Below are positions 4,447-24,359 of a DNA stretch of 64,000 nucleotides, in pieces; position 1 is the stretch's first letter; the number at the start of each line of letters is the position of its first letter. The position numbers were made by a program, and so were the translations under genes. Origin of the DNA: Candidatus Bathyarchaeota archaeon (GTDB lineage: Archaea; Thermoproteota; Bathyarchaeia; Bathyarchaeales; Bathycorpusculaceae); assembly GCA_963806535.1 (NCBI GenBank), contig CAWDYC010000004.1:32001-96000 (forward strand), read 5' to 3'. A model generated the notes under the pieces. The model had not been told where the DNA came from. It saw only the letters and a list, made by a program, of their open reading frames with translations, and made no database searches.

Positions 4447-4510
4447 GAGTAGACCGAGGGATTTGGACACGGCCCATAGTGGAGATATCACCAGCAGTAC
4501 CTCTTTTTTT
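4447..4510 (-). repeat. Degenerate tRNA-Ala 3'-end att-like site with conserved arm (copy A)
   Basis: GAGTAGACCGAGGGATTTGGACAC, 9 nt, TGGAGATATCACCAGC, AGTACCTCTTTTTTT. Confidence 0.7.
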
Positions 4511-4584
4511 GAATTATACTTTCTTTGAAAATGTCTTAATTTAGCTCCACCATAAAACTAAAATCATCGAAAAGATTACAGGTA

Positions 4585-5139
4585 GTGGTGCTAAGATTGT
4601 TTATTTCAGGTAAGTCAAATTTAACACGAAACATAATATCCCTTGCAATATTTGTTTTCATCATAATGGTTGTCGGACCAATAACAATGCAAGGAGCGTA
4701 CGCAGCTCCCACTATAACGTTAAACCCCACAAGCGGACCAACAGGCACAACCGTGCATATTTACGGTTCAGGATTCACACCGAACGGTCAAATACAGAGC
4801 CAACTTTGGAACGGAACAAGCGCCTACAGCTTCACCGCTGATGCAACTGGGAACCTAAATACGACCACCGTAGTTCCCAATGTAGAGTCAGGACCTTATG
4901 TGTTTATAGTAATAGATGCGTCGAGCCAAGGTACAACGCAAACACAATTCACAGTAACTCAATCATCAACTTCTCCTACGCCAACCACAACCTCTTCTAC
5001 GTCAGCATCGCCCTCACCAACGCCCAGCGTTCCAGAACTTCAGTTGCCAGTTGTTGTTCTAATCCTGTTCATTGCAACATCTAGCTTAGCCGTTTCGACG
5101 GTTAGAAAACGCAAGACGGTTACCATCCAAAGCATTTAA
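4585..5139 (+). CDS. Small secreted Ig/IPT-like protein with PEF-CTERM-like sorting signal
   Basis: Signal peptide; PTSGPTGTTVHIYGSGF motif; S/T/P linker; VPEL + TM helix + RKRK. Confidence 0.75.
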   Translation: MVLRLFISGKSNLTRNIISLAIFVFIIMVVGPITMQGAYAAPTITLNPTSGPTGTTVHIYGSGFTPNGQIQSQLWNGTSAYSFTADATGNLNTTTVVPNVESGPYVFIVIDASSQGTTQTQFTVTQSSTSPTPTTTSSTSASPSPTPSVPELQLPVVVLILFIATSSLAVSTVRKRKTVTIQSI

Positions 5140-5201
5140 AAAACCTATTTTGTATTTTTTTATAATAAACTTGTAAGAAGCCAAAGCCCCACTATACCAA
5201 G

Positions 5202-5265
5202 TGGTGGACCGGGGGGATTTGAACCCTTTCCCGTGCCGTGATTTCATTCGCAAAACCCCTTTTTT
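5202..5265 (-). repeat. tRNA-Ala 3'-end att-like site with arm (copy B, includes CCA)
   Basis: TGGTGGACCGGGGGGATTTGAACCC, 9 nt, degenerate palindrome, AAAACCCCTTTTTT. Confidence 0.85.
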
Positions 5266-5359
5266 CTTTTGTGCATACTTAGCGAAGGCGAACAAAATGT
5301 ACAAAATCGTTAGTTGCCCTCATTGCGGCAAAATTATCCCGGAGCATACACTCAAATGA

Positions 5360-5491
5360 GGATCAACACGAAAGATCGTAACTGGTCCAGAGTGTGGCAG
5401 TCAAAGTAACTGCAAAGATGAGGAGGGAAATACACGAATAGGAAAAATTCAGACCTACCTCTGCTGTGATTGCAGCCACAGGGTTTCTTAA
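5360..5491 (+). pseudogene. Remnant IS1-InsA-like zinc ribbon (N-terminus of an integrase or transposase)
   Basis: Hand translation: IVTGPECGSQSNCKDEEGNTRIGKIQTYLCCDCSHRVS*, resembling CPxCGS....KDG......QRYLCxxCG.RF; no in-frame start. Confidence 0.6.
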
Positions 5492-5718
5492 TAAATTGGT
5501 ATTTTCCAAGATTCTATAGAAAAATTTTCGCTTTTATGAGCGACTTAATAATCTGTTCGATTTCTTTTTCATTTAACATTAACTTAAACTTGATTCGACT
5601 TCGGGCTTTTCCACAAATATTTTCCAGAGGGCGATAATTGTTTACTGGCGCAAAGTAAAGAAAAACCAGAAATTGACAGCGTTTAAACAGCTCAGTCTAA
5701 AGCACAATTTAATTCTGG

Positions 5719-8700
5719 TTAGGTTGGTTCGATTCGATAGTTTTCTTTTCCATTCCTGTTTAGTTTTGGAATCGTCAGGGTGAATTTAGCTCCGTTTCCG
5801 GGGGTGCTGTTTTCCTCAATTTCCCATCCATAAATGTCCATCATTTTTTTGATCAAAAATAGTCCAAATCCTGTGCTGCCGCCTGTGCTATACCCTTCCT
5901 TGAAAAGAAACTGTTTATTCTTAGAAAGTACACCCACTCCATTATCCTCATAAACCAACTTAAGACAGTCCTGACCATCTGTATTTTCAAAGTGAACTCT
6001 TATAGTCGTGGCTTTTTGGCCGTATTTTCGGGTATTGTCGATGAAATTGTAGAACATCTGTCTTAGAAATGAATCAGCTAGAATTTTCAGACCATTGCAT
6101 TCATTAATTATATTGGGAAGTGAACCGGAAAAGAGTGAAACAGCTTCTTTTAGCTTGATCTCAACATCTATGTAAACCAAATCTTCTATTCCTAGTTGTT
6201 CATACATTTTTGCGAACTCAAAGATTTTCACAGATTCTGCCACGGCTCGCTCCATAGTGGTAAGCCCATCCACCACATCTACTAAATCACTGTGCTTTTT
6301 CTTGAGAAGATATGCACAACCATTTACTACTGACAATTTATTGCGAACATCATGTCTAGTTAAACTGCCCACGACACCTAATTTTTCGTTAACTAATACT
6401 AACTGATCCACCATCTGGTTTACTTTTTCTTCAGCTTTTTTGCGCTCAGTAACGTCCCTAGCAATGGCTGCAAAACAACGGGTCTCATTAATTCGTAGCT
6501 CGGTCATAGATATCTCTATTAAAAGTTCAGACCCGTCTTTTCTAAGGGCAGGGAGTTCTTGAATTTCGCCTGTAATCTGTATGTTTTCAGCTAAACTATT
6601 GGTTGAGGTTAGATTAGCATGGTTATTGCGAAACTTTGTCGATGGTATTATTTCGTTTAGTTTTTTGACAACTGCTTCTTCTTTTGTGTAACCAAAAATT
6701 TGTTCAGAAGCTGGATTCCAATATATTATTCGGTCTTTATCATCAAACAGAAATATTGCGTCAATTGCCGATTCACTAATGGCTCTAAACTTAGCGTCAC
6801 TTGCCTAGTAAATCTTGTTCCATAGACTTACGTTTAGTAATGTCTATACTTAGCTCCGATACAGCGATAATTTTGTTATTTTCATCTTTAATTGGTGTGG
6901 CAACGATTTCGACCCAATAGGGCTTGCCATCCACAGTAGTGGAGCAGTACTCATGTGAATCAGAAGTTGTTTTTCCTGCAAAAACCTTCGCAACACCACA
7001 GTCTGGACAAGGTGCCTCCAAAGTGTTTAGTGTCGAGTAGCATAGTTTTCCATTTACATTGCCTTTGTATCTTCTAATAAAGTCGTTTTCCCATAAAATA
7101 TGGTAGTCTTTGCTAATAATAACAAGACCGGCATCAATGCTTGCTGTAACTGACTCAAGCTTTTCTCGCTCTTGCCAAAGAGCACCGTTTGCTTCGATAC
7201 GTTCGGTAATGTCATTGTAGATTGCAATAATGTTTCCATTCGGTAGTTTGTATATCCAGTTTTCGCGCCAGCTACGAATGGTCTTTGTCATCTTTGTAGA
7301 GTGTCGCTGGATAATATTCTGGTTTTCCTGTTCGCCACACTCGTTTAAAAACCTCGAAAATACCAAAACTTTTTACGCTTGGAAAGACTTGTGTCACTCG
7401 CTTGCCAAGAACTGTATCCTTGCCTATTTTCTCGATTTTTTCTGCGGCAGTGTTGAAATTTCTAAAAATAAAATCTTCTCCGTTTTCAACCGCCTCATAA
7501 ATAGCAACTCCACTTGGCATGCTTGAAAACAATTGTCTAAATTGTTCTTCGCTCTGACGCAATGACGCCTCATTTCTTTTCCGTTCAGTGATGTCGGTTA
7601 CTAATTCCAAGTATTGCCGTCTGTCCATTATAATCTATCAACTTCGAATTAATTATTGCTTCAATTTTTCCACCATCTTTAGTGACGAGCTGGTATTCGT
7701 ATGGAGAAACATCTTCTCCTCTCATGTGCTTTGCATAAGACGCCTTCAATAAATCGACGCTTTCGGGACTAGCAATTGAAAGAAAGTTGAAGTTAGGAGA
7801 GTAGAATTCTTTTTTTGAATAGCCCAACGTGTCTTCGCATTTCTTGTTAGCATAAACCACTCTACTCTGAAGATTTATGAAAATCATATTAGGTGATTCT
7901 TCAGCAAGATTTCTGAATTTTTCTTCGCTTTCTTTCAAAGACTCTTCAGTTTTCTTGCGTTCAGTAATATCTGAATTGTAACCACTCCAAAGAATGCTGC
8001 CATCTTCTAACTTTTCTGGAGCAGACTGCCCCCACATCCAACGTATTTTTTGACCTGGAAGTTGTATTCGATACTCACATTGCCAAAGAGATAGATTTGC
8101 TGCCGATTGCTCAATTGAGGCGATTACTTTTTCCAAATCTTCTGGAACTATTGCTTTGGTGATCGGTGAAAAATCTTTTCGAACTTCCTGAGGCGAGCAA
8201 CCAAAAACATCGCGTATCTTGTTAGTTGCAAATGGTACACAAAATGTGCCATCAGGGCTTCTTAAAAACTGAAAAAGCATTCCAGGCGTTTGAGCAGCGA
8301 GTTTCAAAAAGCGAGTTTCGTGATCTTCTAATTCTTCTTTTGTTTTATGACGCTCCACAACTAGTTTGATGCTGTGTGCAAGTTCTCCATAAACGGTTTC
8401 TGGTGAGCCCTGTTTGTTATGATATCCATCTGCGCCAAGGTTTAGCGCCTTGATAGCTACTTCTTCCCTGCCTTTACCAGTAAATAGGATAAATGGAATT
8501 TGATTATTTTGTTCTCGAAGCTCTTTTAGAAATTCCAATCCATTCTTCTGAGGCATTTCATAATCACTAATAACAATATCAAACTTCGCAGATCTTATTT
8601 TTCTGAAGGCCTCATCAACACAACTTGCATGTTCAATTTCGAAGTTGCCTATTTCCAAAAGGATCAACTTTGAGATTTCGAGGATGGAAGAATCATCATC

Positions 8701-8790
8701 AACATGCAAAACTCGAATAACCTTTTCCTTATTTAGGGCAACTAAATCAGTTACTTTTACCTGTATTCCATTCTGGTTGAGGGTTTGCAT
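5719..8790 (-). CDS. Hybrid receiver-multiPAS sensor histidine kinase (frameshifted into several ORFs)
   Basis: N-terminal REC (VLHVDDD, SDYEMP), several PAS/PAC ends (DITERK), H-box RHDVRN, G-boxes DNGVG and GTGFGL-like. Confidence 0.9.
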
Positions 8791-9048
8791 CGTCTATACC
8801 CCCCGGACTAAAATAGTTGCTGAGTCAATAATAAGTCATTTATGAATTTAGAATACTAAAAAACTTGTTGATATCATGAAGTGGGACTTCCATTCTTCAT
8901 CATGATCTTTTATGTCGAGAGGATTATCTGTGTCCCAGCATCTTTTCAAAGTCAGGGCATGATTCATTTAATTTGCTAACAGAGAATTTAAGCCAATCCT
9001 ACAAAATTACAGGAGCCAAAGATGGTTCACAGATTTCTGGTTTATCTG

Positions 9049-9200
9049 CTATTTCTTGACCTGGAGAAGCTTATCTTTGACTGCTTCGGCAACAAACTCT
9101 GTCTGATTCCTTTATTCCAAAAGATTCTTCTCTAAGATCTTATCGACCTCGTTTCGTCAAGCTCGACAGGCAGTTTTACGTTGACATAGCGCTTCGTCAT
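9049..9200 (-). pseudogene. Ribbon-helix-helix (CopG-like) regulator remnant
   Basis: MTKRYVNVKLPVEL.. then, after a frameshift, EVDKILEKNLLE*RNQTEFVAEAVKDKLLQVKK*; has an in-frame stop as well as the frameshift. Confidence 0.65.
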
Positions 9201-9413
9201 AGGTACGGATTTAGCGGAAGCTTCTACGTCCTCACAATGTACGTTGTATTCTGGCATGCGTAAGGTCTTCCAAAATAAGGGGTATAGAGGAAGAGGTCTT
9301 TCGAGTTTTGTCTTATCATCAGAATCTATAAAAACAAACCTAATAATTCTAAGCCACTTCTTTCTATACCAGCCAATCCATGGAAGACCTTGGTGTTTGT
9401 AAGCGAACCGCAT

Positions 9414-9475
9414 GTGGACCGGGGGGATTTGAACCCAGGCAGAAGTGGAGATGTCACCAGCAATTCCCCTTTTTT
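9414..9475 (-). repeat. tRNA-Ala 3'-end att-like site with arm (copy C)
   Basis: GTGGACCGGGGGGATTTGAACCC, 9 nt, TGGAGATGTCACCAGC, AATTCCCCTTTTTT. Confidence 0.85.
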
Positions 9476-9604
9476 CTTCGGCGCACGCGCAGATGTATCA
9501 AAAATTACAAAACTTTTTTGGAAAAATAATAGGGAAAAAAAACAATTTGCTATCTTATAAGGATTTAGCAAGTTATAAGAATAAAACATCATATATAGAT
9601 ATTA

Positions 9605-9670
9605 TTGAGCGAAAGTGCAGTTTACGTTTTTGCTCTCGCTCAGCAAATAAAGGCTTGTGCTTTCGTTCAA
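9605..9670 (+). promoter_or_regulatory. 5'-UTR stem-loop of surface-protein paralog 2
   Basis: TTGAGCGAAAGTGCA pairs with TGTGCTTTCGTTCAA (with G-U pairs); lies between a TTATAA box (about 9573) and AAGGAAAGAA/ATG. Confidence 0.55.
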
Positions 9671-9693
9671 ATAAAATTAAAGGAAAGAAAAAA

Positions 9694-12438
9694 ATGAAAA
9701 TTTTAAAAAATAAAACCGCGACTATATTAATTGCAACATTTCTAATGATTTCAATGATGGCTTCATTAGCCTTAGTGCCTGTAAAAGGACAATTCGCAGA
9801 AATAACCCCTCCAGCAGGATCTACAGTGCCATCATATGCTTTTCTTAACATAGCACCTAACCCAGCAGGTGTAGGCCAAACAGTGACCCTAGACATGTTC
9901 CTTGCATCGCCTCTACTCACAAGTGAAGGCGCAACGAATATGACGATAGTAGAAACAACACCAAGCGGAACGACAACTACGCTAGGACCATTTACTTCTG
10001 ATGCTACCGGCGGAACATATACAACAATTGTACCTGAAACAACTGGTAACTATACGTTCCAGTTCTTCTATGGTGGACAATTAATGTTCAACGGTCTTTA
10101 TACAGGACCGAGCCATACGGGCGTAGAAACACTTGTAGTTCAGCAAACTTCAATACCATTAAGCTCATATCCAATAACGCCGCTTCCAACGAATTACTGG
10201 CAGAGTCCGGTCACAGCAGAGAACAGTCAAAACTGGTACGCAATTACTGGACCTTGGCTTGGCTACGGTTCCGTTACATTCGCTTCAACAGGTGGCTACA
10301 ACAATACTGGCAACTTTAACCCATACACCCAAGATGTTCTGTCTGGACATGTTCTTTGGACAAAGCCTTGGGCAGTAGGCGGTCTAGCTGGTGGAGACCT
10401 AGGCGGAACTGAACTCAGTAACTTCTGGTCAACCTCTCAGTATTGGCCAAAGTTTGCCCCAGTCATAATGAACGGCATACTCTACTCAACCTGGTACACA
10501 ACAACCACAGGATACTCAAACGGCATCATTGCAATGAACTTGTACGATGGACAAACCCTATGGACACTAAACACCACTAATCCGTTGCTTTGCGGCATGG
10601 AAACTCAATGGAAAACAATTAACATGTACGGCGTTATAGGTCCGTACATCATTACATCAGGAACTCTACCTGGCGTAAATGATGGATTCGGAACAACCGT
10701 CGGGATGTTCGGTCCAACCCTTGGACCACTGGCAGAGTTTAACCTGTATGATGCCTTAACTGGAACATACGTTCTTAGCATTGTCAATGGCACCGCAACT
10801 CCAACATTTACGACAGATGCCAACGGAAACATAATCGGCTACTACACTGATTCTACCCCTGGTACAATCACTACATATGGAACCACAGCCGCAATGGGTG
10901 GATTTCCAACGGTGACAGGGAAAGTGACCATTACGCCTACTAGTCCTCCTTATGTGGTTGAGTGGAACATGTCAAATGCCCTTGCCGCAATAGGAGCCCC
11001 AGGCCAGAGTCAAGCTTGGGGTTGGTCGCCACCAGCGGGCTCAGTGGCTAACTTCGATTACGGAAATGTGTGGGCCACACCGATGGCTAATGTTACTACA
11101 GACACAGGCGCTCCTCTAAACAACGGACAACTAGCTTACGCTACGCAAATAAACGGTATTGGCGGTATGCTAACTAACAACGCAGTGGTATTGACTGGCG
11201 GATTCACTACTGGACAAGGGACTGGAGGCGAGCAAGATGGCTGGCTAATTGTAAGCGCAAAGGATGCAACCACTGGAGCTACGCTATTTGCCAAGAACTA
11301 TACATATCCAAATGTTGAGGCTTTGTTACCTTTCACGAGGACAATAGTGCAAGTCACAGACGGAGAGATAATAATATGCAACCAGGTAAACAATCAGGTT
11401 GACGCCATTAATGCACGTACTGGTAATATCGATTGGAAGACAACACTTCAAGGGTCCAGCGGCGGAACTCCAAATCTATATAACGTCTTTGGCATCGCAA
11501 TTCGCAATGGTCCAGGCATGTCCATCTATGAAGGCTTCGGAGGAGACATATGGGGTGTAAACGATGCGACTGGAAACATAATGTGGTACACGAATACAAC
11601 TGCAATCTTGGGCAATCCAGGGATTGAAACTCCGTACGGCATATGGCCACTGTGGGTCTTCGGTTGCACTTGCGTATCCAACGGTATTGCATACCTGGCT
11701 GTCGGCCATGAGTACAACCCGCCACTATTCCACGGAGCACAACTGCTAGCATTAAACTTGACAAATGGAAATCTAGTATGGAGTGAACTAGACTTTTCCG
11801 TTGAATCCACATCAATTGCACAAGGCATCGTACTGACGCGCAACGCTTACGACAACCAACTCTACTCCATGGGCAAAGGACCAAGCGCAATGACAGTCAC
11901 TGCACCAGATGTCGGAGTCACAACTGCTACTCCAATAACAATAACTGGCACAACAATGGATGTCTCTGCAGGCGCATCGCAAGAAGCGGTCAAAGCAAAC
12001 TTCCCCAATGGTCTACCATGCGTTTCCGATGCTAGCGAGAGTCACTGGATGGAGTATGTATATCAGCAGCAACCGTATCCGACCGGAGCAACAGGTGTTC
12101 CAGTCACTCTAAGCGTAATAGACGCCAACAACAACTTTAGAACCATCGGCACAACCAAAACCGACGCTAGCGGACACTACTCCTATACATGGACACCTGA
12201 CATACCAGGAAACTACACACTCATAGCGGCATTCGCAGGCTCCAACTCATACTACGGATCATCAGATGAAACGAGCTTTTATGCTAGCTCGCCACCATCA
12301 ACACCGACACCCACCGCAACAACAGCCTCTAACTTGGCAACAACATCAATGCTAGAACTTGGAATTGTAGCCATCATAATCGTCATCATCATAATCGGCG
12401 TCGTATTGGCGTTGCTGATGATGAGAAAACACGCATAA
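9694..12438 (+). CDS. PQQ-like beta-propeller surface protein (paralog 2)
   Basis: True start MKILKNK with signal peptide; APNPAGVGQT, GHEYNPPLFHGAQL and PNGLPCVSDAS motifs; C-terminal TM. Confidence 0.9.
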   Translation: MKILKNKTATILIATFLMISMMASLALVPVKGQFAEITPPAGSTVPSYAFLNIAPNPAGVGQTVTLDMFLASPLLTSEGATNMTIVETTPSGTTTTLGPFTSDATGGTYTTIVPETTGNYTFQFFYGGQLMFNGLYTGPSHTGVETLVVQQTSIPLSSYPITPLPTNYWQSPVTAENSQNWYAITGPWLGYGSVTFASTGGYNNTGNFNPYTQDVLSGHVLWTKPWAVGGLAGGDLGGTELSNFWSTSQYWPKFAPVIMNGILYSTWYTTTTGYSNGIIAMNLYDGQTLWTLNTTNPLLCGMETQWKTINMYGVIGPYIITSGTLPGVNDGFGTTVGMFGPTLGPLAEFNLYDALTGTYVLSIVNGTATPTFTTDANGNIIGYYTDSTPGTITTYGTTAAMGGFPTVTGKVTITPTSPPYVVEWNMSNALAAIGAPGQSQAWGWSPPAGSVANFDYGNVWATPMANVTTDTGAPLNNGQLAYATQINGIGGMLTNNAVVLTGGFTTGQGTGGEQDGWLIVSAKDATTGATLFAKNYTYPNVEALLPFTRTIVQVTDGEIIICNQVNNQVDAINARTGNIDWKTTLQGSSGGTPNLYNVFGIAIRNGPGMSIYEGFGGDIWGVNDATGNIMWYTNTTAILGNPGIETPYGIWPLWVFGCTCVSNGIAYLAVGHEYNPPLFHGAQLLALNLTNGNLVWSELDFSVESTSIAQGIVLTRNAYDNQLYSMGKGPSAMTVTAPDVGVTTATPITITGTTMDVSAGASQEAVKANFPNGLPCVSDASESHWMEYVYQQQPYPTGATGVPVTLSVIDANNNFRTIGTTKTDASGHYSYTWTPDIPGNYTLIAAFAGSNSYYGSSDETSFYASSPPSTPTPTATTASNLATTSMLELGIVAIIIVIIIIGVVLALLMMRKHA

Positions 12439-12510
12439 ACACAAGCAAGCCAAAAAATCAATTTCCCCTTCCTTTTTTTCTTCTTAAAAATCATATACAT
12501 AAGGGTATGG

Positions 12511-12568
12511 ACAGAGTTTTCATTTGGCGTTTTTCTTCCTTCAGTTTGTCCAGAGCCTCAGCAAACCC
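12511..12568 (-). repeat. Orphan leader-like repeat module, copy 1
   Basis: 12537-12568 is identical over 32 bp to 19827-19858; minus strand reads GTTTGCTGAGGCTCTGGACAAACTGAAGGAAGAAAAACGCCAAATGAAAACT. Confidence 0.8.
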
Positions 12569-12602
12569 TCAACGGCAAAATGAAATTAAGCAAATACAAG
12601 TC

Positions 12603-12638
12603 TTTTGACAAAAAGTGGTCTGGAGGGATTTTGCACTC
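12603..12638 (-). repeat. Highly degenerate tRNA-Ala 3'-end att-like copy
   Basis: TTTTGACAAAAAGTGGTCTGGAGGGATTTTGCACTC aligns with TTTTGACAAGAGTGGACCGGGGGGATTTGAACC at 20022-20054, in the same context. Confidence 0.5.
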
Positions 12639-13023
12639 TTGCCACAAAATACGATGAAATTACTGTTAGCGGAACTCAAGTACAATCCTGCAAAGAAACT
12701 AAGAAGGTTCTCAAATGCCTGGAACTCATTAAGCGTCTCAAAGGTGTACTTTTAAACGTAGTAGCATATGTATAAGTATATATACATTGTTTTTTGGCGC
12801 ATCTCCCCCAAAATCCCTTTTCTTTTTGATTTTTCAGCGGATAATTAGCGAACCGAATCATAGATATTTCCGAAAGGAGAACGGCCGAAAAGACTATCTC
12901 TTTACATAAAGAGGGAATCACAATTAAACCAATTGTTCCAGTAAAGAATTGCCTTATGAGGCGGTTTTTTTGGTCATTCGCCTTAGCGCATAAACCATTT
13001 TGTTTCTGTTCTGAGCCAAGATT

Positions 13024-13812
13024 CTAATGTGTTCTATCCCACAAATCGTCAAAGTAGTGTGTGGCTAGTTTTACAACATGCAGGTTGTTTGACCATAACG
13101 AGGGTAGACCATTTTCCTTACATACGGCTAAGGTTACTTCTTTTCTGTCAAAAATACGCATTCCATCTGGGTCAAAGTTGGACAGGTATTTAATTTCAAA
13201 GAAGGGATTTTTCGCTAAGGCTTGCGGCTTTCTCAGTGCTAAATCTCCCTCCGCCTTTTGTGTCATCATCCGAATTTTTACGCCTCTCCTCATTGCCCTC
13301 TTGTGAAATTGGAGATCGCGAAATAACGTTTTCTCAACGGCTTTCAATGGAATAGCGATATCTATACTGGTTTGAGCCGACTGAGTTAGCCTTTCGAATA
13401 TTTTTAGAAGAAGTGTTTTTTCTGAAGTAATTATGAACTGTGACTCCTCTTCATGAGGAGCTATTTTAGCATTATTGTTGTGAAAATTATTAAGTAGCGA
13501 GCTTGTTTTCTTTTGTATTTCAGCATATTCCTTTTTTCTTTTTTGAAGCAGAATTGAAATGCCTTCCTCTAGCGGCGTGGCTCTGTATATGGTCGGTTTA
13601 GTTATGATTTTTTCTGCAAGTCCCAGTTCTTGCAACGTAGGCATTATTCGGTAGATATCTTGCCGAGCCATGTTTGAAGCCTTTGCAATTGTTTGAACAT
13701 TTGCTTTGCCAAGATTTAAAAGATTTAGATACATTCTAGCCTGTAAAAGGCTGAGTCCGCAATCGATTATTGTTTGTATGTTTTCGTCCTGAATCATGGA
13801 AACCCTTTCCAA
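13024..13812 (-). CDS. TrmB-family transcriptional regulator
   Basis: GLSLLQARMYL..L wHTH, RQDIYR..LQELGL; PLD-like C-domain (IFDRKEV, FDDLW). Confidence 0.9.
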   Translation of the reverse strand: MERVSMIQDENIQTIIDCGLSLLQARMYLNLLNLGKANVQTIAKASNMARQDIYRIMPTLQELGLAEKIITKPTIYRATPLEEGISILLQKRKKEYAEIQKKTSSLLNNFHNNNAKIAPHEEESQFIITSEKTLLLKIFERLTQSAQTSIDIAIPLKAVEKTLFRDLQFHKRAMRRGVKIRMMTQKAEGDLALRKPQALAKNPFFEIKYLSNFDPDGMRIFDRKEVTLAVCKENGLPSLWSNNLHVVKLATHYFDDLWDRTH

Positions 13813-14308: not shown

Positions 14309-14450
14309 GTAGCGTTTTTTGAGCTTAGAGTGGCAGACTGTTTTTACTGAAATTTTACTGGGTTGATTTGTAAGAAGAAGTTCTTGTTACAAGTGTTTAA
14401 AACCAAAATGGACCGATGTTAGGCGCACAGAAAATAAGGAAAGAACAAAC

Positions 14451-17156: not shown

Positions 17157-17163
17157 AAATGCC

Positions 17164-19686
17164 AAGCCTATCGGCGTTGGACAAACAGTAAACGTCAACT
17201 TCTTCCTAGCAGTACCGATACAATCCAGTGAAGGACCAACAAACATGACTGTCAAAATCACAAACCCAGACGGTAGCACTGAAACCAGAGGTCCATACAC
17301 AGGCGACGCAACAGGCGGGTCCCACTTTGACTTTGCTCCAGATAAAGTCGGCAATTGGACTTTCCAGTTCTTCTACGGGGGGCAAACAACAACAACCGGC
17401 GTCGGATTTACAGACCTTAAAGAGATGCCCAGCCAAAGTGAAGTCTATACACTCGTAGTGCAACAGGAACCGATAACTCAAAGTTCATACCCAATAGCAC
17501 CGCTACCCACAAAGTACTGGGAAACCCCAGTCTCAGCGCAAAACGTCCAAGAATGGTACAAGATCATGGGTCCTTGGCTTGGAACCGGATTAGTTGGGTC
17601 AGCAAAAACTGGGCTATACAATGAATCGAGCACTTACAATCCATACACTGATTCAGTACTTTCGGGGCACGTTCTCTGGACTAAACCTTGGTGCGCAGGC
17701 GGTGTGGTTGGTGGAGCCGCAGGCGGAACAGAAGACACAGGAAACTACTGGTCAACAAGGCAGTACATGCCTCAATATGCCCCCGTGATAATGAATGGCA
17801 GGATGTATTCTACGTGGTATGCAGAAACACAAGGGTACTCAGCTGGCATTGTTTGCACGGACCTCTATACAGGTGAAACACTGTTCACAATAAACACAAC
17901 TAGTGTGTTGCAATGCGGAATGGAAACCGAATGGAAGACAGCTAACATGTATGGCGTCGTTGGTCCATACCTTATTACTGTCGGCACTCTTTCAGCATCC
18001 GAAACTGGCGGGACTAAACCAGCCAATGTTGGAACACAATACAACATGTATTCTGCCTTTACTGGCAATTATGTCCTTAGCATTGTTAACGGTACTTCAC
18101 TGACGCTTAAGACGGATGATAATGGAAACTTGATAGGTTACTACATCAACAGTACTGTTGGCACAATGAACATCTATAATCAAGCAGGTCTCAAAGCGAC
18201 GGTAAACATCACTGCAAGCCAACCCTTCCTATGCTGTTTCAACATGTCGCAAGCACTCTGGCAAAGTGGCAGTAGTTTTCAATGGAGTCCATCCCAAAAT
18301 GCAGTTGTTAACTTCGGGTTGGGAGTTATGTGGGCGAAACCAGTACCTACCCAAATTAACGGCGTACCTATAAACAACCCCCCTCTCAACTTAGGTATAT
18401 CCCCATGGTGTGCGCTGACTGGCAATTCAGTGATATTGACTTCTGGAATCATTCACATGGCAAATCAACAGCCAGGCTATATAGTCTTGTGTGGCATGGA
18501 TCAAACTACCGGCGAAGTACTAATGTGCAAGAACTACACCTATCCAGAGTGTCAGTCATTACAACCCTTTACTAACGATCAATACATCGTCATAAATGGA
18601 CTCGTGGTCTTGGTTAACATGGAAAATTGGAAATGCGACGCTATCGACTTAAGCACCGGCAACATAGCATGGAAGACAACTCTCACAACTCCATACGGTG
18701 ACGGAACACCAAACGTATACTCAATACTTGGTGGCATAAACTTCATCGGACAAGCAAATGGCAGGCTGTTTATTGAGGGCTTTGGCGGAGACATGTGGGC
18801 TCTTAACGCAACGACCGGAAACCAACTGTGGTATACCAACACAACAACTCTCATTGGAGCTCCAAGCCTTGAATCACCATACGGCGTCTGGCCGTTGTGG
18901 CCTTGGTCTGGTACCCTGTGTTTCTCAAATGACGTCGCTTATTGTGCTGTAGGTCATGAGTATGATCCGCCGCTGTTCCATGGTGCACAACTTCTCGCGG
19001 TGAACCTAACTAGCGGAGAGCTAGTCTGGAACGAATTAGGCTTTTACGATGTTAGTCTTTCAATTGCTTATAACACTCTGCTGACGCTGAATTGTTACGA
19101 CAATCAGATATATGCCTTCGGCAAGGGACCAACCTCTACCACTGTTAATGCCCCCAGCGTTGGAGTGACAACCGCTACGCCGATAACGATTACGGGCACT
19201 GTGATGGATGTTTCCGCTGGTGTACAGCAGTCTCAGGTTGCAAAAGACTTCCCCAATGGGCTTCCATGTGTTTCTGACGCAAGCCAGAGCAAGTGGATGG
19301 AATATGTCTACCAAGACCAAGTAATGCCGAGCAATGCTACAGGCGTCACCGTTACACTAGGCGTTCTTGACTCTAACAATAACTTCCGACAAATCGGCAC
19401 GACAACATCCGATGCTAGTGGTAAATATGGTTTCACTTGGACTCCAGATATACCAGGCAATTATACACTCTATGCAAGCTTTGCAGGCTCCAACTCTTAT
19501 TATCCATCGTCAGCTGAAACATACATCTATGCCAGCACTCCAGCACCAACAGTATCTCCGTATCCTGTGCAATCGAATCCTTTGCCTTTAACTGAAATGT
19601 ACATTGCTGCAGCAGCAGTTGCGATGATAGTTGCAGTAGCTATAGTCGGCGCTCTACTACTTGTAGCAGTTAGGAAACGACCATAA
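17164..19686 (+). CDS. PQQ-like beta-propeller surface protein (paralog 4) lacking promoter and signal peptide
   Basis: Homology starts at KPIGVGQTV 7 bp after the upstream stop; first in-frame ATG at 17245; rest intact, ending TM + RKRP. Confidence 0.8.
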   Translation, partial: KPIGVGQTVNVNFFLAVPIQSSEGPTNMTVKITNPDGSTETRGPYTGDATGGSHFDFAPDKVGNWTFQFFYGGQTTTTGVGFTDLKEMPSQSEVYTLVVQQEPITQSSYPIAPLPTKYWETPVSAQNVQEWYKIMGPWLGTGLVGSAKTGLYNESSTYNPYTDSVLSGHVLWTKPWCAGGVVGGAAGGTEDTGNYWSTRQYMPQYAPVIMNGRMYSTWYAETQGYSAGIVCTDLYTGETLFTINTTSVLQCGMETEWKTANMYGVVGPYLITVGTLSASETGGTKPANVGTQYNMYSAFTGNYVLSIVNGTSLTLKTDDNGNLIGYYINSTVGTMNIYNQAGLKATVNITASQPFLCCFNMSQALWQSGSSFQWSPSQNAVVNFGLGVMWAKPVPTQINGVPINNPPLNLGISPWCALTGNSVILTSGIIHMANQQPGYIVLCGMDQTTGEVLMCKNYTYPECQSLQPFTNDQYIVINGLVVLVNMENWKCDAIDLSTGNIAWKTTLTTPYGDGTPNVYSILGGINFIGQANGRLFIEGFGGDMWALNATTGNQLWYTNTTTLIGAPSLESPYGVWPLWPWSGTLCFSNDVAYCAVGHEYDPPLFHGAQLLAVNLTSGELVWNELGFYDVSLSIAYNTLLTLNCYDNQIYAFGKGPTSTTVNAPSVGVTTATPITITGTVMDVSAGVQQSQVAKDFPNGLPCVSDASQSKWMEYVYQDQVMPSNATGVTVTLGVLDSNNNFRQIGTTTSDASGKYGFTWTPDIPGNYTLYASFAGSNSYYPSSAETYIYASTPAPTVSPYPVQSNPLPLTEMYIAAAAVAMIVAVAIVGALLLVAVRKRP

Positions 19687-19750
19687 ACACTTTAACAAAA
19701 CAAATTTCCTTTCCCTTTTTTTGGGACTAAAATAATATGAGTTTAAGATT

Positions 19751-19987
19751 GGGGGCTGAGTGGGCTTTGGATAATATTTATGTAGTCGCGGTTAAGAATG
19801 GTTTAGTTTTCATTTCCATTCTTTTCTCCTTCAGTTTGTCCAGAGCCTCAGCAAACCCCCTTAGAATTAATGGTGTGTGATATGGGGCTGACTAGGTTTT
19901 GGTTAAAATATGATCTCTATTCAATTTTGCGAAAAGCGCATTTGCGATTGCGTTCCTTTCCTTAGGTTTGTCCAGAACTTCAGCAAA
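19751..19987. repeat. Degenerate tandem duplication (about 130-bp unit) containing two leader-like modules
   Basis: GGGGCTGA..TTTGG.TAA at about 19752 and 19884; CCTT..GTTTGTCCAGA.C.TCAGCAAA at 19827-19856 and 19959-19987. Confidence 0.65.
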
Positions 19988-20031
19988 TAAATGAATAATC
20001 AAAAAATTGAGAAGATCACTTTTTTGACAAG

Positions 20032-20090
20032 AGTGGACCGGGGGGATTTGAACCTACTATCAAATGGAGACATTACCTGCCCTCTTTTTT
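20032..20090 (-). repeat. tRNA-Ala 3'-end att-like site with arm (copy D)
   Basis: AGTGGACCGGGGGGATTTGAACCT, 9 nt, TGGAGACATTACCTGC, CCTCTTTTTT. Confidence 0.85.
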
Positions 20091-20258
20091 CTTTTGTTTC
20101 TCGATTTTAATGCTTAAGAGTTGATAACACCAAAGGAATATACCCGGAAACGCAAATAGCGATCACACCGAAGTGCAGAGTGAAGTCTCGTTGCGATATG
20201 AACAAAATTCTTGTTTTTAAGTTTGGATAGATCCAATCACCTAGTTTTTTATAATCTG

Positions 20259-22316
20259 CTAACGCGCTTCCCTTGCTCGAGGTGGGTACATGGTTATAAC
20301 TATATCTCTGCCAATTGTTCCTTCAGTTCCGGGGCCGGAATATTTTGACGCAGGATGAAAGAAAGTTACGAACGCGTCTAAACCATTGTACTCAATATTT
20401 GTTTTTACGCCGGAAGGTAGCATGTACTCAACTACCCCGCTTCTGAGTTCACTGTAGCCTTCGAGCAGTATGCAAGCAGGCGGCAGACTAAGTGATGAAA
20501 GAAGCGGGATAGGCTTAGTCCATCCAGCGAAAACAATGTTCCCTTGAACTCGTACCTGGAGCTCGTCTTTTTTGACGAGATGTACGTTTTTTTCGGCAGG
20601 AGTGCCTGCATTTTGTGTTTTCTCAAGCTCTACAGCTCTGGGATTGTCTGTAACGATAGCTGCTGGTACGTAAGCATAGCCTTTTGGCGTTTCAAGCCAC
20701 AAGTAAACCACTAGCCTGTTACCACCACCTTGCTGGGATTGCTCGTTGAAATGGTTGACCCAAATCATCATATCAGGCAGGTTAAAGCTGTCTGGCGGAT
20801 GGATAACGGCGTGTCCGCTGCTACCGTAGACTCTTGTTATGTCCTTGAGCCAGTTTTTGCCTGGGCATTTCTTGGCGTTGCCAATCGTGTTCAAAATGTC
20901 TTTTTCGGTGATTATACCCGGTTTCTCCACGACTTCATGGATCATTTTCTGGTATGCCCCATCTGGCTTGGACCAAACGTGTTCTTCTTCACGAAGAGGA
21001 GTGCTTGCACGTATAGGCGGTTTCAGGATAGAGTCCAGAGTGATGACTGAAGGAACGGATGCTTTTTTCCAAACTTCATTTAACATCTTTTTAGTCTTTT
21101 CCACGTATTCAAAATCATCAGTATAGAAATGCCGCGTTAAGGCGGATTTCTGATTGGGGGAAACTTGAGACTGGAAGAGGGTTTTTCCATCAACGATTAC
21201 AGTGTCAAAGTAGCTTGTAGACACATGCTTGACAGCACAGCATTTCATTAGTTCTTGAGCAGCAATCAAGTTTTCCTTGATTATGGGCGACATAATTTTA
21301 ACGGAGATTCCTCTTTCAATCTGTTCTCTCAGCAGGGAAATATGTTTCCAAGATTCAATGAGACCTTTTGAAGAGATCATCATCATGATTTCCTCTTGAG
21401 CTGACTTTAGAGCCTCATTGTAGGTCTCAAGGGCAGTGTGAGCGTCACTGATAACGCGTGTTGTCGGTGTTGGTTTACCAGTTTCAATCTCCGAAATTTT
21501 CATATTTATGTCTGTGGAGTCGATCCACAAATCCTCAAAGACAGCCGTAAACGCTTGTACCAGAGACTTACAGTTCGTCCAAAGGCATACGTCATCCTTT
21601 TCTGCCTTTTCCGTTCTTGGCGTGATGAAGAACAATATTTCTTCGTTATCTCTTGCAACCATTCTGGGAAAAAGGCTTAAACCTAAATCAGGGTTTCTTG
21701 CCTTCAGGTTGAAGTTGGTCTTAGATGTTCTCTTGAGAATTGTTTTCATGATATTCAGATTTTTTTCTGACAATTCGGTGAGAAAACGATACGTAATTTG
21801 TGACCTCAAAGGATGACTAAAGGCCACATCGAAAATGCCAAATTGATCAGCACGCATCATGCTTGGAACAGTGGTTGCTGTTAACAGTTGATGTTTAGTA
21901 TCTAGAATCATCTTAGATATTCTTGAGTAGATTCTTTTGTTTCCTTTGATTACAGCAAATTTTTCTAAAGAAGGTTCTAACTCTGTATTGTGTTTTTTCT
22001 TTAGGTAGTCAAGAAGTTCTTTCCTGCTTTTCTCTATCAGGGCAACTTCCTTTTGCCTAGCTCCAATAATAGAATCTAGAATGTTCTCGAAGGGAACTAC
22101 TGTGAAGTGTGTGGGAAACTCTACAGTTGACTCCGCAAAACCCTTGGCTTGAAGCCTATTTAGAATGCGAAAAACCTGCGCCTTATCTTTCCCAAGAAGT
22201 CTGGCGATTTCGTTAACTTTCATCGCATCGTGTTTGGCGAGGAAAATGTACACCTCTGCCTCTTTTTCGGTCAAGCCAGAATTAATGAGAACCTTTTTTA
22301 TTGTTTCCTCGCTCAA
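20259..22316 (-). CDS. Large TrmB-family regulator (wHTH, two PLD-like domains, extra C-terminal domain)
   Basis: GLTEKEAEVYIFL wHTH; two TrmB sugar-binding-like domains (FEDLW; IVDGK..LNEVW). Confidence 0.85.
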   Translation of the reverse strand: MSEETIKKVLINSGLTEKEAEVYIFLAKHDAMKVNEIARLLGKDKAQVFRILNRLQAKGFAESTVEFPTHFTVVPFENILDSIIGARQKEVALIEKSRKELLDYLKKKHNTELEPSLEKFAVIKGNKRIYSRISKMILDTKHQLLTATTVPSMMRADQFGIFDVAFSHPLRSQITYRFLTELSEKNLNIMKTILKRTSKTNFNLKARNPDLGLSLFPRMVARDNEEILFFITPRTEKAEKDDVCLWTNCKSLVQAFTAVFEDLWIDSTDINMKISEIETGKPTPTTRVISDAHTALETYNEALKSAQEEIMMMISSKGLIESWKHISLLREQIERGISVKIMSPIIKENLIAAQELMKCCAVKHVSTSYFDTVIVDGKTLFQSQVSPNQKSALTRHFYTDDFEYVEKTKKMLNEVWKKASVPSVITLDSILKPPIRASTPLREEEHVWSKPDGAYQKMIHEVVEKPGIITEKDILNTIGNAKKCPGKNWLKDITRVYGSSGHAVIHPPDSFNLPDMMIWVNHFNEQSQQGGGNRLVVYLWLETPKGYAYVPAAIVTDNPRAVELEKTQNAGTPAEKNVHLVKKDELQVRVQGNIVFAGWTKPIPLLSSLSLPPACILLEGYSELRSGVVEYMLPSGVKTNIEYNGLDAFVTFFHPASKYSGPGTEGTIGRDIVITMYPPRAREAR

Positions 22317-22446
22317 ACCAGCTGCTCCAATGGTTGTTGGTGATAGACTTTGTCACTCGTACAAGTTTAAGTGACCTCATGGGCTTAATTGTTTTTTGAT
22401 GGTTTGAACCGAATTTCGCATTAATCTGGTAGGGAGGTGAGAAAAA

Positions 22447-23037
22447 ATGAAAAAGAAGACTCTTTTGATCTGCATCATCGTATTAACGACTATACTCATG
22501 ACTTCATCGATGATATCATTGTCCCAAGCAGGTTTGCTCTTTAAACCCAAGCAAGAATATGTGATCTACGACTTTAGAGTAAGCATTAACCCAGCCGGTG
22601 TTGTCAATACTCTTACGGATACCAGCGCTTTCCCAGTCGTCGTCCAAGAAATCTACAGCACAGATGCAGCTATAGTATCGGCAAGCGTCACAATAAACGG
22701 GGTGGCATATACTTATCCTAAGGATTTCGACTACAGTTATACCGGCCATATGGAACTCAATTATGTTACGGGATATGGCTTGGATATAATTCAGGAGAAG
22801 CTTACCTTCAAAAACTTGCCTGGGCATCCAATTCTGAACGGGCGAGCAGAAGAGAAAGTTAGTGGCTTAATTCTCTCTCCCACTATGGACATCAGTCATT
22901 GGGAAGAGTTTGGCAATTTCCAACTGAGCGGTACTAAAATGTTCAGTATTGTACACGGCGACGGGGCTGCAATGGGTGGAGTTTCAACAGGTTATGTCGT
23001 ACGCCACTTCGGCCTAATTAGCGACTGGCCTCTCTAA
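22447..23037 (+). CDS. Secreted hypothetical protein
   Basis: GGAGGTGA RBS; MKKK + hydrophobic signal peptide; 196 aa. Confidence 0.75.
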   Translation: MKKKTLLICIIVLTTILMTSSMISLSQAGLLFKPKQEYVIYDFRVSINPAGVVNTLTDTSAFPVVVQEIYSTDAAIVSASVTINGVAYTYPKDFDYSYTGHMELNYVTGYGLDIIQEKLTFKNLPGHPILNGRAEEKVSGLILSPTMDISHWEEFGNFQLSGTKMFSIVHGDGAAMGGVSTGYVVRHFGLISDWPL

Positions 23038-23106
23038 CAAACATAGAGCTTACAAATTTCGTTCCTCTTTTTTTCAGTTTCATCTTTCTAGAAGGGTGCG
23101 GTTCGA

Positions 23107-23460
23107 TTGAGTAAAGAAAAGATGCTCAAAACACTCGTAAGTTTAGGGTTCACAGAAACAGACGCCCAGGTCTACTTCTATCTCACAACCGAAGGTCTCC
23201 AAAAAGCTGCAGACATAACTGAAGCACTGAAACTTCACAAGCAGCAACTCTACAGAAGCCTGAAACGTCTGTTTAGGAAAGGCATAGTAAAGACTACTCT
23301 TGAGCGTCCTTCACGGTTTTCGGTTGCGTTATCGATCGAGAAAACTTTAGACTTGTTGATCGAAACCAAAAAGGAACAAACTTTGGAGTTGCAAGCAAGC
23401 CGCGAAGAACTCCTTTCTTCTTGGAGATCTATGATTGAGAAGCATTCTTCAGACAGCTGA
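23107..23460 (+). CDS. Stand-alone TrmB-type wHTH protein
   Basis: LGFTETDAQVYFYL...QQLYRSLKRL..KGIV. Confidence 0.85.
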   Translation: MSKEKMLKTLVSLGFTETDAQVYFYLTTEGLQKAADITEALKLHKQQLYRSLKRLFRKGIVKTTLERPSRFSVALSIEKTLDLLIETKKEQTLELQASREELLSSWRSMIEKHSSDS

Positions 23461-23602
23461 CATATCTGCATTTTTTGGTTGTAAACTATCTCAATTGCTC
23501 CAAGACGAGCAAACCATTGTCTGCAACAGCAACCCAGAGAGCATTAAGCCTCCAACAATGATCATTTTAGTCAAATAGAGCTGAATTGAGGTTGAAGTGA
23601 AG

Positions 23603-23676
23603 TGGACCGGGGGGGATTTGAACCCCCGACCTCTTGAGTGCAAGTCAAGCGTTCATACCAGCTGAACTACCGGCCC
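23603..23676 (-). tRNA. tRNA-Ala(UGC)
   Basis: Cloverleaf GGGCCGG/CCGGTCC with G3:U70; anticodon arm CTTGA-CTTGCAC-TCAAG; T-loop TTCAAAT; CCA not encoded. Confidence 0.97.
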
Positions 23677-24283: not shown

Positions 24284-24359
24284 TCCAGTCAGGTAACCAT
24301 AAACTATTTTAGTTTACTTAAGAATCAAAACTTAGCAACTCGTGCAAATTGGTGTTTTA

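Follow-up and report, generated by a model that had tools for sequence, protein, structure and literature searches.

The question raised by this locus is why the 3' end of a tRNA gene recurs several times in the DNA downstream of it. In a window of 64,000 nucleotides from a Candidatus Bathyarchaeota archaeon (the whole stretch of DNA that was analysed), an initial annotation had proposed that repeats derived from tRNA-Ala divide positions 4447–23676 into modules, an integron-like array built by repeated capture of surface proteins and regulators by one element family. The repeats and the division into modules behind tRNA-Ala are real, while the first interpretation as a whole is partly supported. 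The features are as follows (window coordinates, strand, feature).

23602–23676, minus: intact tRNA-Ala(UGC) gene, target of integration on the attL side (ARAGORN; Rfam tRNA, 70.7 bits)
20098–23601, mixed: module A, about 3.5 kb with arm, without integrase (Pfam, translations)
23107–23460, plus: TrmB-like protein of 117 aa, module A (Pfam, translation)
22447–23037, plus: signal-peptide protein of 196 aa, module A (Pfam, translation)
20259–22316, minus: TrmB-like protein of 685 aa, module A (Pfam, translation)
20033–20097, minus: att copy 1, exact 22-mer core (20033–20054/55) and arm to about 20097 (arm profile E = 2.4e-4 genome-wide)
12637–20032, mixed: module B, two surface proteins, a TrmB-like protein and one ORF (Pfam)
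17245–19686, plus: beta-propeller/Ig-like surface protein, module B (Pfam)
14451–17156, plus: beta-propeller/Ig-like surface protein, module B (Pfam)
13024–13812, minus: TrmB-like protein of 262 aa, module B (Pfam)
12676–12921, minus: ORF of 81 aa, module B
12614–12636, minus: possible decayed att core, uncertain (15/22 core bases)
9483–12613, plus: module C, a single surface-protein gene (9694–12438) with conserved 3' flank (12515–12568)
9414–9482, minus: att copy 2, exact core and best-preserved arm (arm profile E = 5e-15)
5273–9413, mixed: module D, hybrid histidine kinase, ORF of 93 aa and zinc-ribbon relic (Pfam, translations)
9132–9413, minus: ORF of 93 aa, module D
5722–8793, minus: hybrid histidine kinase (REC-PAS-HATPase) in four frame segments, module D
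5297–5490, plus: relic of the arm-proximal small zinc-ribbon gene with in-frame stop, module D (match 5372–5488, E = 2.4e-6)
5204–5272, minus: att copy 3, exact core and diverged arm (arm E = 0.015 genome-wide, 2.2e-4 within the island)
4518–5203, plus: module E, a single gene for a small surface-anchored protein (4585–5139; translation)
4448–4517, minus: att copy 4, degenerate core and well-kept arm (arm profile E = 1.7e-9)

A search of window positions 1–26000 against Rfam returned tRNA-Ala as the sole match besides one sub-threshold overlap. Downstream of this gene lies a family of 48-nt direct repeats with copies at 4448, 5204, 9414 and 20033. Their first 22 nt are identical among the copies at 5204, 9414 and 20033 and equal the 3' end of tRNA-Ala, the block of identity reaching from within the T-stem to the last tRNA base; the copy at 4448 is 67% identical over 48 nt. 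These three copies carry a run of six G versus seven in tRNA-Ala, and because of this difference an ungapped search with up to three mismatches found the tRNA alone. A fuzzy search of all 12 contigs of the 2.95-Mb assembly located the exact 22-mer only at the same three positions, the remaining matches being tRNA-Ala with one inserted base and the 3' ends of other tRNAs. Each of the four copies is followed by a conserved arm of about 45 nt; the strict arm pattern finds only the copy at 9414 in this genome. The proposed origin of the repeats in tRNA-Ala is thus borne out by exact cores and a shared arm, and the exact sites lie downstream of tRNA-Ala rather than scattered over the genome.

The weak fifth copy proposed at 12614 fares less well. 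Its 15 of 22 matching core bases are about what chance would give in 20 kb alone by a rough binomial estimate, and the nearby arm-like stretch (12786–12829, E = 7.2) is not significant. A motif alike in 12515–12568 and 19805–19858 was considered as a 'P-prime arm' of the att site and rejected, as it is the 3' flank of surface-protein genes: it lies about 100–150 nt past 13 of 24 such genes genome-wide, on the gene's strand. The case for 12614 is weakened by this, since the motif belongs to the surface-protein genes and not to the att site. The only points that lend the position some weight are its usual distance past a surface-protein 3' flank and the shared TTTTGACAA.AGTGG stretch.

The gene content of the modules is as first described, except that the 'RHH relic' of module D turned out to be a relic of a zinc-ribbon gene (5297–5490). 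The module C protein has a signal peptide and a C-terminal membrane anchor, and that of module E a signal/TM segment, a Thr/Ser/Pro linker and a C-terminal TM segment with RKRK. The modules carry genes on both strands and their own TrmB-type regulators. No match to PF00589 was obtained in 4447–23676, although there are eight in the genome, in agreement with the earlier statement that the array holds no intact recombinase. The loss of mobility genes suggested at that time is likewise supported, the zinc-ribbon relic being the only trace of an integrase element inside the units. We therefore class the units as decayed or integrase-less derivatives, since the integrase is missing here and present in relatives at tRNA-Ala.

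These relatives define a family of tyrosine recombinases of about 385–440 aa with an N-terminal InsA-like zinc ribbon. Family members are present at tRNA-Ala in the genomes G013, G014, G139 and G136; in G013 and G014 full-length genes adjoin this tRNA (PF00589 E about 1e-22, plus the zinc ribbon). A search of genome_contigs gave 335 integrase relatives, with Bathyarchaeia titles among the best 80 of the 335. At 60 of 78 loci the distance from the integrase stop to a tRNA is at most 110 nt, the tRNA being convergent at 57 of them and a tRNA-Pro(GGG) on the integrase's own strand at three; of the remaining 18, four are at contig ends. Intact integrase genes end 26–93 nt from the tRNA. A 38-kb IMG/VR contig has a 45%-identical integrase at its end.

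The intact elements are of different kinds. In G014, 32.8 kb between tRNA-Ala and its repeat form a tailed provirus with genes for the major head, scaffold, tail, neck and large terminase proteins. The 11.4-kb element of G139 encodes an intact integrase, a primase and a methylase and has no surface-protein gene, and it carries the arm at its far end (profile E = 2.4e-13). The far ends of the intact large elements of G013 and G014 have different arms and G136 has a variant arm, so that the arm is not universal for the integrase family. In G013 and G139 the units that come after the integrase-bearing element carry either relics of an integrase or none. The order in L045 is tRNA-Ala, a C-terminal remnant of the integrase, a small zinc-ribbon ORF, arm and core, and G013, G127 and G100 show similar arrangements of integrase or zinc-ribbon relics by the arm. 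Units of about 0.6–1.3 kb in L045, G013 and G127 were at first taken for 'integrase-only mini-elements'; they are derivatives with internal deletions, in which the integrase C-terminus and, as a separate frame, the small zinc-ribbon ORF are retained, the latter ending at RFS-stop in three loci. The genome under study has no intact family integrase in its 92%-complete assembly, the best match (C3:472426–473634) being 32% identical with internal stops, and for this reason present-day activity cannot be claimed.

The strict arm pattern was found in 43 of the 120 genomes that represent the genus (79 matches listed), whereas a reversed-pattern control gave no match in the same 120 genomes; a search of viral_contigs with the arm pattern, for free attP forms, gave none. 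At least two matches within 20 kb on one strand occur in six of the 43 arm-positive genomes. The tRNA tails fused to the arm at 30 loci belong to tRNA-Ala (11), tRNA-Leu (5) and tRNA-Arg(CCT) (2), with 12 unassigned or degenerate, and the roughly nine bases that separate the arm from the T-arm are free to vary. Arrays in which neighbouring sites enclose one or two surface-protein genes were also seen in G016, G092, G074, G100 and G127. Together with the shared cores and the integrase relatives at tRNA-Ala, the shared arm bears out the claim that one tyrosine-recombinase element family has repeatedly used this tRNA gene, and the repeats are attR-type junctions of a Bathyarchaeia zinc-ribbon tyrosine integrase family.

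The clearest case of a unit at a second location is module A. Its 3.5 kb are 89% (G127) and 89–91% (G078) identical to a precise 3.4-kb insertion at tRNA-Leu(GAG), which lies between this tRNA and a 16-nt repeat of its 3' end, the homology with module A starting right at the tRNA end. The syntenic core genes of the two relatives are 80–82% (G127) and 75–82% (G078) identical to those of this genome. Here the tRNA-Leu(GAG) site is empty and is followed directly by the flank that in G127 comes after the repeat. The occupied Leu site and its empty counterpart indicate that integrase-less modules behave as discrete mobile units, an idea that is thereby upheld for at least one of them.

The array forms the tRNA-proximal half of a variable island that extends beyond the left edge of the window. 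The island is bounded by conserved Fer4 and glutamine-cyclotransferase genes and measures about 39.5 kb here versus 9.5 kb in the relative G003. Homologues of module E lie beside degenerate arms only 2–3 kb from tRNA-Ala in G101 and G009 versus 18.5 kb here, a shift that fits insertion of newer units beside the tRNA. The assembly carries indels in conserved genes: the reading frame of the kinase shifts three times, and the Mrp/ParA-like gene has two extra single nucleotides when compared with two relatives. This makes both the six-versus-seven G difference and the pseudogene calls unreliable. One public run, with 8% of the sampled words, gave 13 short contigs on 4000–23900 with no joints and no core covered. 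Contigs of this run, which is independent of the assembly, matched eight listed pieces of the region, four of them without difference and none spanning a core.

That the array serves as a shuffling platform for surface variation, as the initial annotation inferred, would be conjecture. The surface-protein family itself has more than 20 paralogues dispersed throughout the genome, mostly without recognisable sites, and the pairing with TrmB is also genome-wide. Of the 15 arm-profile matches in the genome, four precede a surface-protein or TrmB–surface-protein unit by no more than about 400 nt and in the right orientation, against a roughly estimated chance expectation of 0.02.

Our preferred explanation, to which we assign a probability of about 0.8, is that the island arose by tandem accretion and decay of integrative elements through repeated integration at tRNA-Ala(UGC). 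The attP site would comprise the conserved arm (an A-tract, a GGGG-type box and GGTGAYATCTCCACT), about nine variable bases, the target tRNA from T-arm to 3' end, and a short TTCAAC-type flank. Integration would regenerate the tRNA and leave 'arm plus tRNA 3' end' at the far side, and newly arriving elements would displace older units outward. The array studied here has lost its integrase genes, together with most of the small zinc-ribbon gene next to the arm. The remnants are att-bounded, integrase-less modules with surface proteins, TrmB-type regulators and a sensor kinase. The zinc ribbon may be the arm-binding domain.

Besides the lack of an intact family integrase in the assembly and the differing arms of some family members, three observations fit this scheme poorly. 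Crossover at the T-loop, which the initial annotation named as known for some tyrosine integrases, agrees with an identity block that starts in the T-stem/T-loop, and strand exchange probably occurs in or near this loop. Each displaced copy should then carry the old tRNA tail, yet the perfect cores share six G; either the assembly is in error, or one copy gave rise to another, or attP was their source. The decayed site at 12614 between perfect copies speaks against a simple oldest-is-outermost order, and the order of arrival suggested by module E can be only provisional. The presence of module A at two intact tRNAs, finally, is beyond explanation by a fixed attP core.

In a second reading the integrase-less modules are functional units rather than debris and are excised, moved and reshuffled in trans, through arm plus core, by the integrases of resident or visiting proviruses and plasmids. 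Such arrays could do in archaea what gene capture by integrons or CIMEs does elsewhere, here for surface proteins and their regulators; we put this forward only tentatively. The precise integrase-less insertion of module A at another tRNA in two relatives argues for it, as do the greater similarity of module A than of core genes between species, the arrays with one or two surface-protein genes per interval in five further genomes and the four upstream arm placements; the decayed 12614 site inside a unit with perfect end sites would fit composite excision. The arms are well kept where integrases are gone, although this may reflect young age alone. A second location is seen for one module only, the assembly has no intact family integrase, the surface-protein genes are a dispersed family mostly without recognisable sites, and the short contigs of one run, none of which covers a core, contain no circular form, empty Ala site or reordering. 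We thus regard living cassettes as doubtful, and hold with similar reserve that zinc-ribbon integrases move arm-plus-tRNA-tail modules in trans even between different tRNA genes, a virus-driven exchange. Any mobility of the units today would be conjectural.

That the arm and T-arm serve the surface-protein genes as a regulatory or RNA element, for example a promoter-proximal operator or a tRNA-like small RNA that has spread together with these genes, and are not a recombination site, appears very unlikely. Several surface-protein genes not located at tRNA-Ala do have arm-like sequences 200–350 nt upstream, and on the gene strand the arm is succeeded by a T-tract. The same arm, however, is also found next to remnants of the integrase, next to the small zinc-ribbon ORF and at the far end of the 11.4-kb element of G139, it is fused to the tail of a nearby or known tRNA (12 of the 30 loci being unassigned or degenerate), and the bases separating it from the T-arm vary freely. 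An RNA gene was rejected, as Rfam at E values up to 0.1 matched only tRNA and no RNA family at the arm or core. Still less credible is the idea that the copies stem from misassembly of a long-read metagenome bin, or from simple duplication of a segment around the tRNA. The indels in the kinase and Mrp/ParA-like genes and the public reads, which gave only fragments of the region, would be in keeping with it, but the modules between the copies all differ from each other, the same architecture recurs in independent assemblies including the single-contig genomes G003 and G014, and the pieces matched by the independent run agree with the assembly, half of them fully. Accretion and decay at tRNA-Ala(UGC) therefore remains the explanation that we favour.

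Little has been described of the mobile elements of Bathyarchaeia, an abundant class with hardly any cultured members. The consulted sections of one virus survey mention integrases and contain neither att sites nor integration targets. The locus and its relatives define an integrase family with its tRNA targets and a hotspot for the turnover of cell-surface proteins and regulators between species, and the recognisable arm-core site offers a means of marking off proviruses and islands in metagenome bins. Should integrase-less units still move in trans, genes could be exchanged by a tractable route in a lineage for which genetic tools are lacking.

Among known systems, integrons and CALINs share with this array the arrangement of short units in rows, the occurrence of single-gene units, the repeated recombination sites and the recombinase-free units. 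attC sites are imperfect palindromes recombined as folded single strands, and integron cassettes are mostly promoterless and in one orientation. The sites here appear to be tRNA tails with an arm rather than folded attC sites, with genes on both strands and regulators borne by the units, and those family members that are intact represent entire viruses or plasmids. An intI/attI/Pc platform is lacking: the array has no flanking integrase, the PF00589-like ORF closest to it (29543–30373; 22 bits, below cut-off) lies on the other side of the tRNA, and the zinc-ribbon family scores far below the cut-offs of the NCBIfam integron-integrase models. The term 'integron-like' in its strict sense is accordingly abandoned.

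SSV-type ('suicidal') integrases carry attP inside the integrase ORF and are split on integration. A coding-like frame through arm and core was considered as such a split integrase and rejected, since sequence conservation does not extend past the A-tract and the intact integrases are in one piece; in this family the gene stays whole after integration, ending before the tRNA. The CIMEs of streptococcal ICEs are att-flanked units without integrase, in tandem with integrase-bearing relatives, that arise by site-specific accretion. The integrase-less units of the window and the mixed rows of G013 and G139 are of this type, with composite excision as a possible route of gene capture, but conjugation machinery is absent here. 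In the tycheposon islands of Prochlorococcus, hypervariable and tRNA-anchored, newcomers push older elements inward (bioRxiv 10.1101/2020.12.28.424599). As far as the consulted part of that report goes, they share the tRNA anchor, the scattered fragmented integrases and partial extra tRNAs and the niche-adaptive cargo, and differ from the present case with its archaeal host, unrelated integrase lineage and cargo of surface proteins and TrmB-type regulators, and also in that their activity has been demonstrated experimentally.

She et al. (2001–2004) reportedly spoke of 'gene capture' at archaeal integration sites. As in Islander-type and other archaeal integrated elements, an intact tRNA here faces displaced 3' copies, three exact and one degenerate. 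Tandem arrays of tyrosine-recombinase elements, 'cryptic integrated elements' and integrase loss after integration are described for archaeal tRNA genes in the consulted sections of a review (PMC8371274) and of a survey of Thaumarchaeota (PMC6563490). Common to these and to our locus are the 3' part of the tRNA as target, displaced tRNA fragments marking unit ends, re-use of the site leading to arrays, units without integrase, and one integrase family serving both proviruses and plasmid-like elements. The words 'Bathyarchaeota' and 'zinc' are absent from the 2021 review (PMC8371274), and the present elements differ in their Bathyarchaeia host, in the N-terminal zinc ribbon of the integrase and in an arm of about 45 nt conserved across units with different tRNA targets. 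The locus is thus a largely familiar kind of integration hotspot, which here collects surface-protein and regulator genes.

The genome under study (G000; 2.95 Mb in 12 contigs, the window being C4 32001-96000) carries behind its tRNA-Ala(UGC) gene a series of att copies, each consisting of a core, i.e. a copy of the tRNA 3' end, and an arm, a conserved stretch of ~45 nt beside it. A repeat search of the window identified a direct-repeat family of 48 nt with copies at 4448, 5204, 9414 and 20033. The first 22 nt are identical among the copies at 5204, 9414 and 20033 and correspond to tRNA-Ala from the T-stem interior to the final base, one G short of its 7-G run; because of this missing G, an ungapped search matched the tRNA only. 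In the whole genome the exact 22-mer occurs at these three positions only, confirming the initial annotation, which had described the tRNA-Ala 3' end as recurring downstream of the gene, degenerately at 4447. In the copy at 4448 the arm is good and the core mutated. For the further copy proposed at 12614 a weak resemblance stands (15/22 bases), but not significance on its own. The arm common to the att copies reads GTGGAGATRTCACC, a short spacer and CCCCTTTTTT on the plus strand, and occupies the side of the missing tRNA remainder. With the weak 12614 site counted, the att copies delimit five modules.

tRNA-Ala(UGC) and the modules behind it (TrmB-like proteins named by length in aa)
23602-23676, minus strand: tRNA-Ala(UGC)
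Module A, nearest the tRNA: TrmB-117, signal-peptide protein, TrmB-685
Module B: two surface proteins, TrmB-262
Module C: one surface protein
Module D: sensor kinase and small zinc-ribbon gene relic at 5297-5490 (tblastn E = 2.4e-6; in-frame stop)
Module E, outermost: one small surface-anchored protein

The hybrid sensor kinase (5722-8793, minus strand) falls into four frame segments requiring three frame changes, and the conserved Mrp/ParA-like gene at 24342-25207 (plus strand) has two 1-nt insertions relative to the relatives G013 and G127. These two genes make indel errors in the assembly likely; the 6-G run, pseudogene calls and single-base differences across the window are accordingly unsafe.

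In the related genome G003, the array is flanked by a Fer4 protein and a glutamine cyclotransferase, whose G000 orthologues are located at C4:13085-16111, so the island measures ~39.5 kb in G000 versus 9.5 kb in G003; no recognisable att sites were found in its outer 20 kb. The module E gene lies 2-3 kb from tRNA-Ala in G101 and G009, adjoining degenerate arms, and 18.5 kb away in G000, as expected if newer units enter beside the tRNA.

A pattern search found the arm fused to a T-arm in 43 of 120 genus genomes (79 matches among those listed), while the reversed arm pattern, used as a control, gave 0 matches in the same 120 genomes. The spacer between arm and T-arm (~9 bases) is freely variable. 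At the 30 arm-carrying loci included in the tail assignment, the tRNA tail following the arm was that of tRNA-Ala (11), tRNA-Leu(UAG/CAG) (5) or tRNA-Arg(CCU) (2), and was decayed or unassigned in 12. Arrays anchored at tRNA-Ala are common. Related records carry Bathyarchaeia or Bathyarchaeota MAG titles.

Arrays behind tRNA-Ala in related genomes
G003: 3-4 copies in 9.5 kb
G016: 2 copies
G100: at least 6 arm-profile matches in one stretch, the best-preserved four with tRNA-Ala tails
G092: 3 copies
G074: 2 copies
G127: 3-4 copies

At one G092 locus (L138, on C8), two inverted surface-protein 3' motifs lie just inside the arm at ~14180-14400 and 3930-4130, with no gene between them; this could represent an emptied unit or a pair of binding sites.

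No match to PF00589 was found in the array by profile search, in agreement with the earlier observation that it holds no intact recombinase. Beside tRNA-Ala, G013 (442-aa ORF) and G014 (421 aa) encode full-length integrases that combine a CxxC...CxxC ribbon with a tyrosine-recombinase catalytic domain and a conserved tail. In G102 (L045), 0.6 kb separates tRNA-Ala from an arm-core copy; this interval retains an integrase C-terminus remnant (PF00589 positions 121-168), and a 43-aa zinc-ribbon ORF adjoins the arm. A scan of species-representative genomes returned 335 relatives, and the distance to a tRNA was determined for the 78 best loci with an aligned C-terminus. In 60 of these, no more than 110 nt separate the integrase stop from a tRNA, which is convergent in 57 cases and in the other three is a tRNA-Pro(GGG) call on the strand of the integrase itself. 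By target, the 60 divide into Cys (23), Ala (16), Arg (8), Leu (5), Pro (5), Ile (1) and two odd calls; of the other 18 loci, 4 reach a contig edge. As the integrase gene is left unsplit on integration, the family is not of the SSV type. In G000 the integrase has been lost: the only close copy, on C3, is stop-ridden, and short C-terminal relics lie near other tRNAs. A 276-aa ORF at 29543-30373 (plus strand), 6 kb beyond tRNA-Ala on the opposite side, shows a sub-threshold PF00589 match (E = 2e-4), a weak DUF4391 match and no NCBIfam match, and falls outside the zinc-ribbon family.

Whole elements bounded by such sites are present in relatives. In G014 (L018/L019; C1:962,772-995,523), the 32.8 kb from tRNA-Ala to its repeat, which form the att ends, encode scaffold, major head, neck, tail, large terminase, methylase and helicase, and thus correspond to an apparently complete tailed provirus of a Bathyarchaeia genome; at its far end the arm differs and the small zinc-ribbon ORF is the same. 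This small gene is positioned just inside the arm. An 11.4-kb unit in G139 encodes an intact integrase next to the tRNA as well as PriCT primase, methylase, BrxC/D-like and Csa1-like proteins, and bears the arm at its far end (E = 2.4e-13 versus the arm profile); G136 contains a primase element of 14.7 kb whose arm is a variant. Since intact elements such as the G139 unit end in the arm, it serves as the attP arm in at least a part of the integrase family.

Module A has a counterpart at G127:C4:865675-869030 with 89% identity and matches two G078 contigs at 89-91% identity. In these relatives the homologue lies behind tRNA-Leu(GAG) rather than tRNA-Ala; the G127 tRNA-Ala carries a different array. 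Homology begins immediately past the final base of the tRNA and ends ~60 nt beyond the stop of TrmB-685, where 16 nt of the tRNA-Leu tail are repeated. The G000 tRNA-Leu(GAG) (C7:259048-259135) directly abuts the sequence that follows this repeat in G127 and is an empty site. Core genes beside tRNA-Ala share just 80-82% identity with those of G000 in G127 and 75-82% in G078, so the unit is more alike than its hosts. Module A thus provides one case (n = 1) of an integrase-less unit present elsewhere as a precise insertion. In G078, a second Leu-tail repeat lies 2.5 kb farther out with a second arm type, TTTTTACCGGWAAAATA..GCGGATGT, which is joined past the T-loop to the tail of the tRNA.

Second att type at tRNA-Leu(GAG)
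L133 (G078:C70): 6291-6306 and 8819-8834, in tandem
L131 (G127): 19091-19106

In the interval 20094-20258, from the stop of TrmB-685 to the Ala-type arm, alignment detects a faint likeness to this Leu-type arm and core, which may be a trace of the module's earlier site and is too weak to call.

The surface proteins (~900 aa, beta-propeller/Ig-like; 24 detectable 3' ends in G000) are often encoded beside a TrmB-262-like gene. Four of 15 arm-profile matches (E up to 1) lie within ~400 nt upstream of surface-protein units in the right orientation, three of them far from tRNA-Ala, against a roughly estimated chance expectation of 0.02. A ~70-nt block ending TCCAGAGCCTCAGCAAAC occurs ~100-150 nt behind 13 of the 24 genes, on the gene's own strand. 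It was rejected as a part of att, as it belongs to the surface-protein gene family, and could be a 3' UTR element, a terminator region or an operator.

The ~70-nt block, and displaced tRNA 3'-end copies elsewhere in G000
Block, window: 12515-12568, 14265-14301, 19805-19858, 19958-19987
Block, genome examples: C4:404782, C4:431516, C5:65341, C7:149154
Displaced tRNA 3'-end copies: C3:142770; C3:193839 and 195644; C4:168484; C5:158117; C3:386320 and 388231

The genes followed by these displaced copies are tRNA-Thr(GGU), Val(UAC) (two copies, at distances of 9 and 10.9 kb), Arg(UCU) and Cys; another two copies, of Arg(CCU) type, are found at a distance from their gene. Because displaced copies lie behind other tRNAs, integration scars are genome-wide and not special to tRNA-Ala. 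At C4:431,570-431,640, a T-arm/acceptor-like fragment of another tRNA stands in reverse complement ~55 nt behind a surface-protein 3' block, the geometry seen at 12614 and 20033. Degenerate arms with tRNA-Ala-type cores also occur far from tRNA-Ala at C7:152390-152455, C10:19021-19090 and C4:79-132, in one case just upstream of a gene for a surface protein; these could be relocated pieces of an old array or secondary sites.

Strand exchange would take place within or close to the T-loop, the stem of which offers a natural inverted repeat; the integrase may bind the arm through its zinc ribbon, and the stand-alone zinc-ribbon protein may act as an accessory or directionality factor. The array would have grown by accretion, older units being displaced outward, composite excision may explain the decayed site inside unit B-C, and units may have been mobilised in trans. 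That units are still being exchanged in trans is a minority reading, which we consider rather doubtful.

A 2021 review on the tyrosine recombinases of archaea (PMC8371274) contains neither "Bathyarchaeota" nor "zinc", and the parts consulted of a Bathyarchaeia virus survey mention integrases and give no att sites. The tRNA-Ala array is not an integron. Repeated use of tRNA sites in tandem, loss of the integrase and partial tRNAs dispersed through islands have been described both in archaea (PMC8371274, PMC6563490) and for the tycheposons of Prochlorococcus (bioRxiv 10.1101/2020.12.28.424599).
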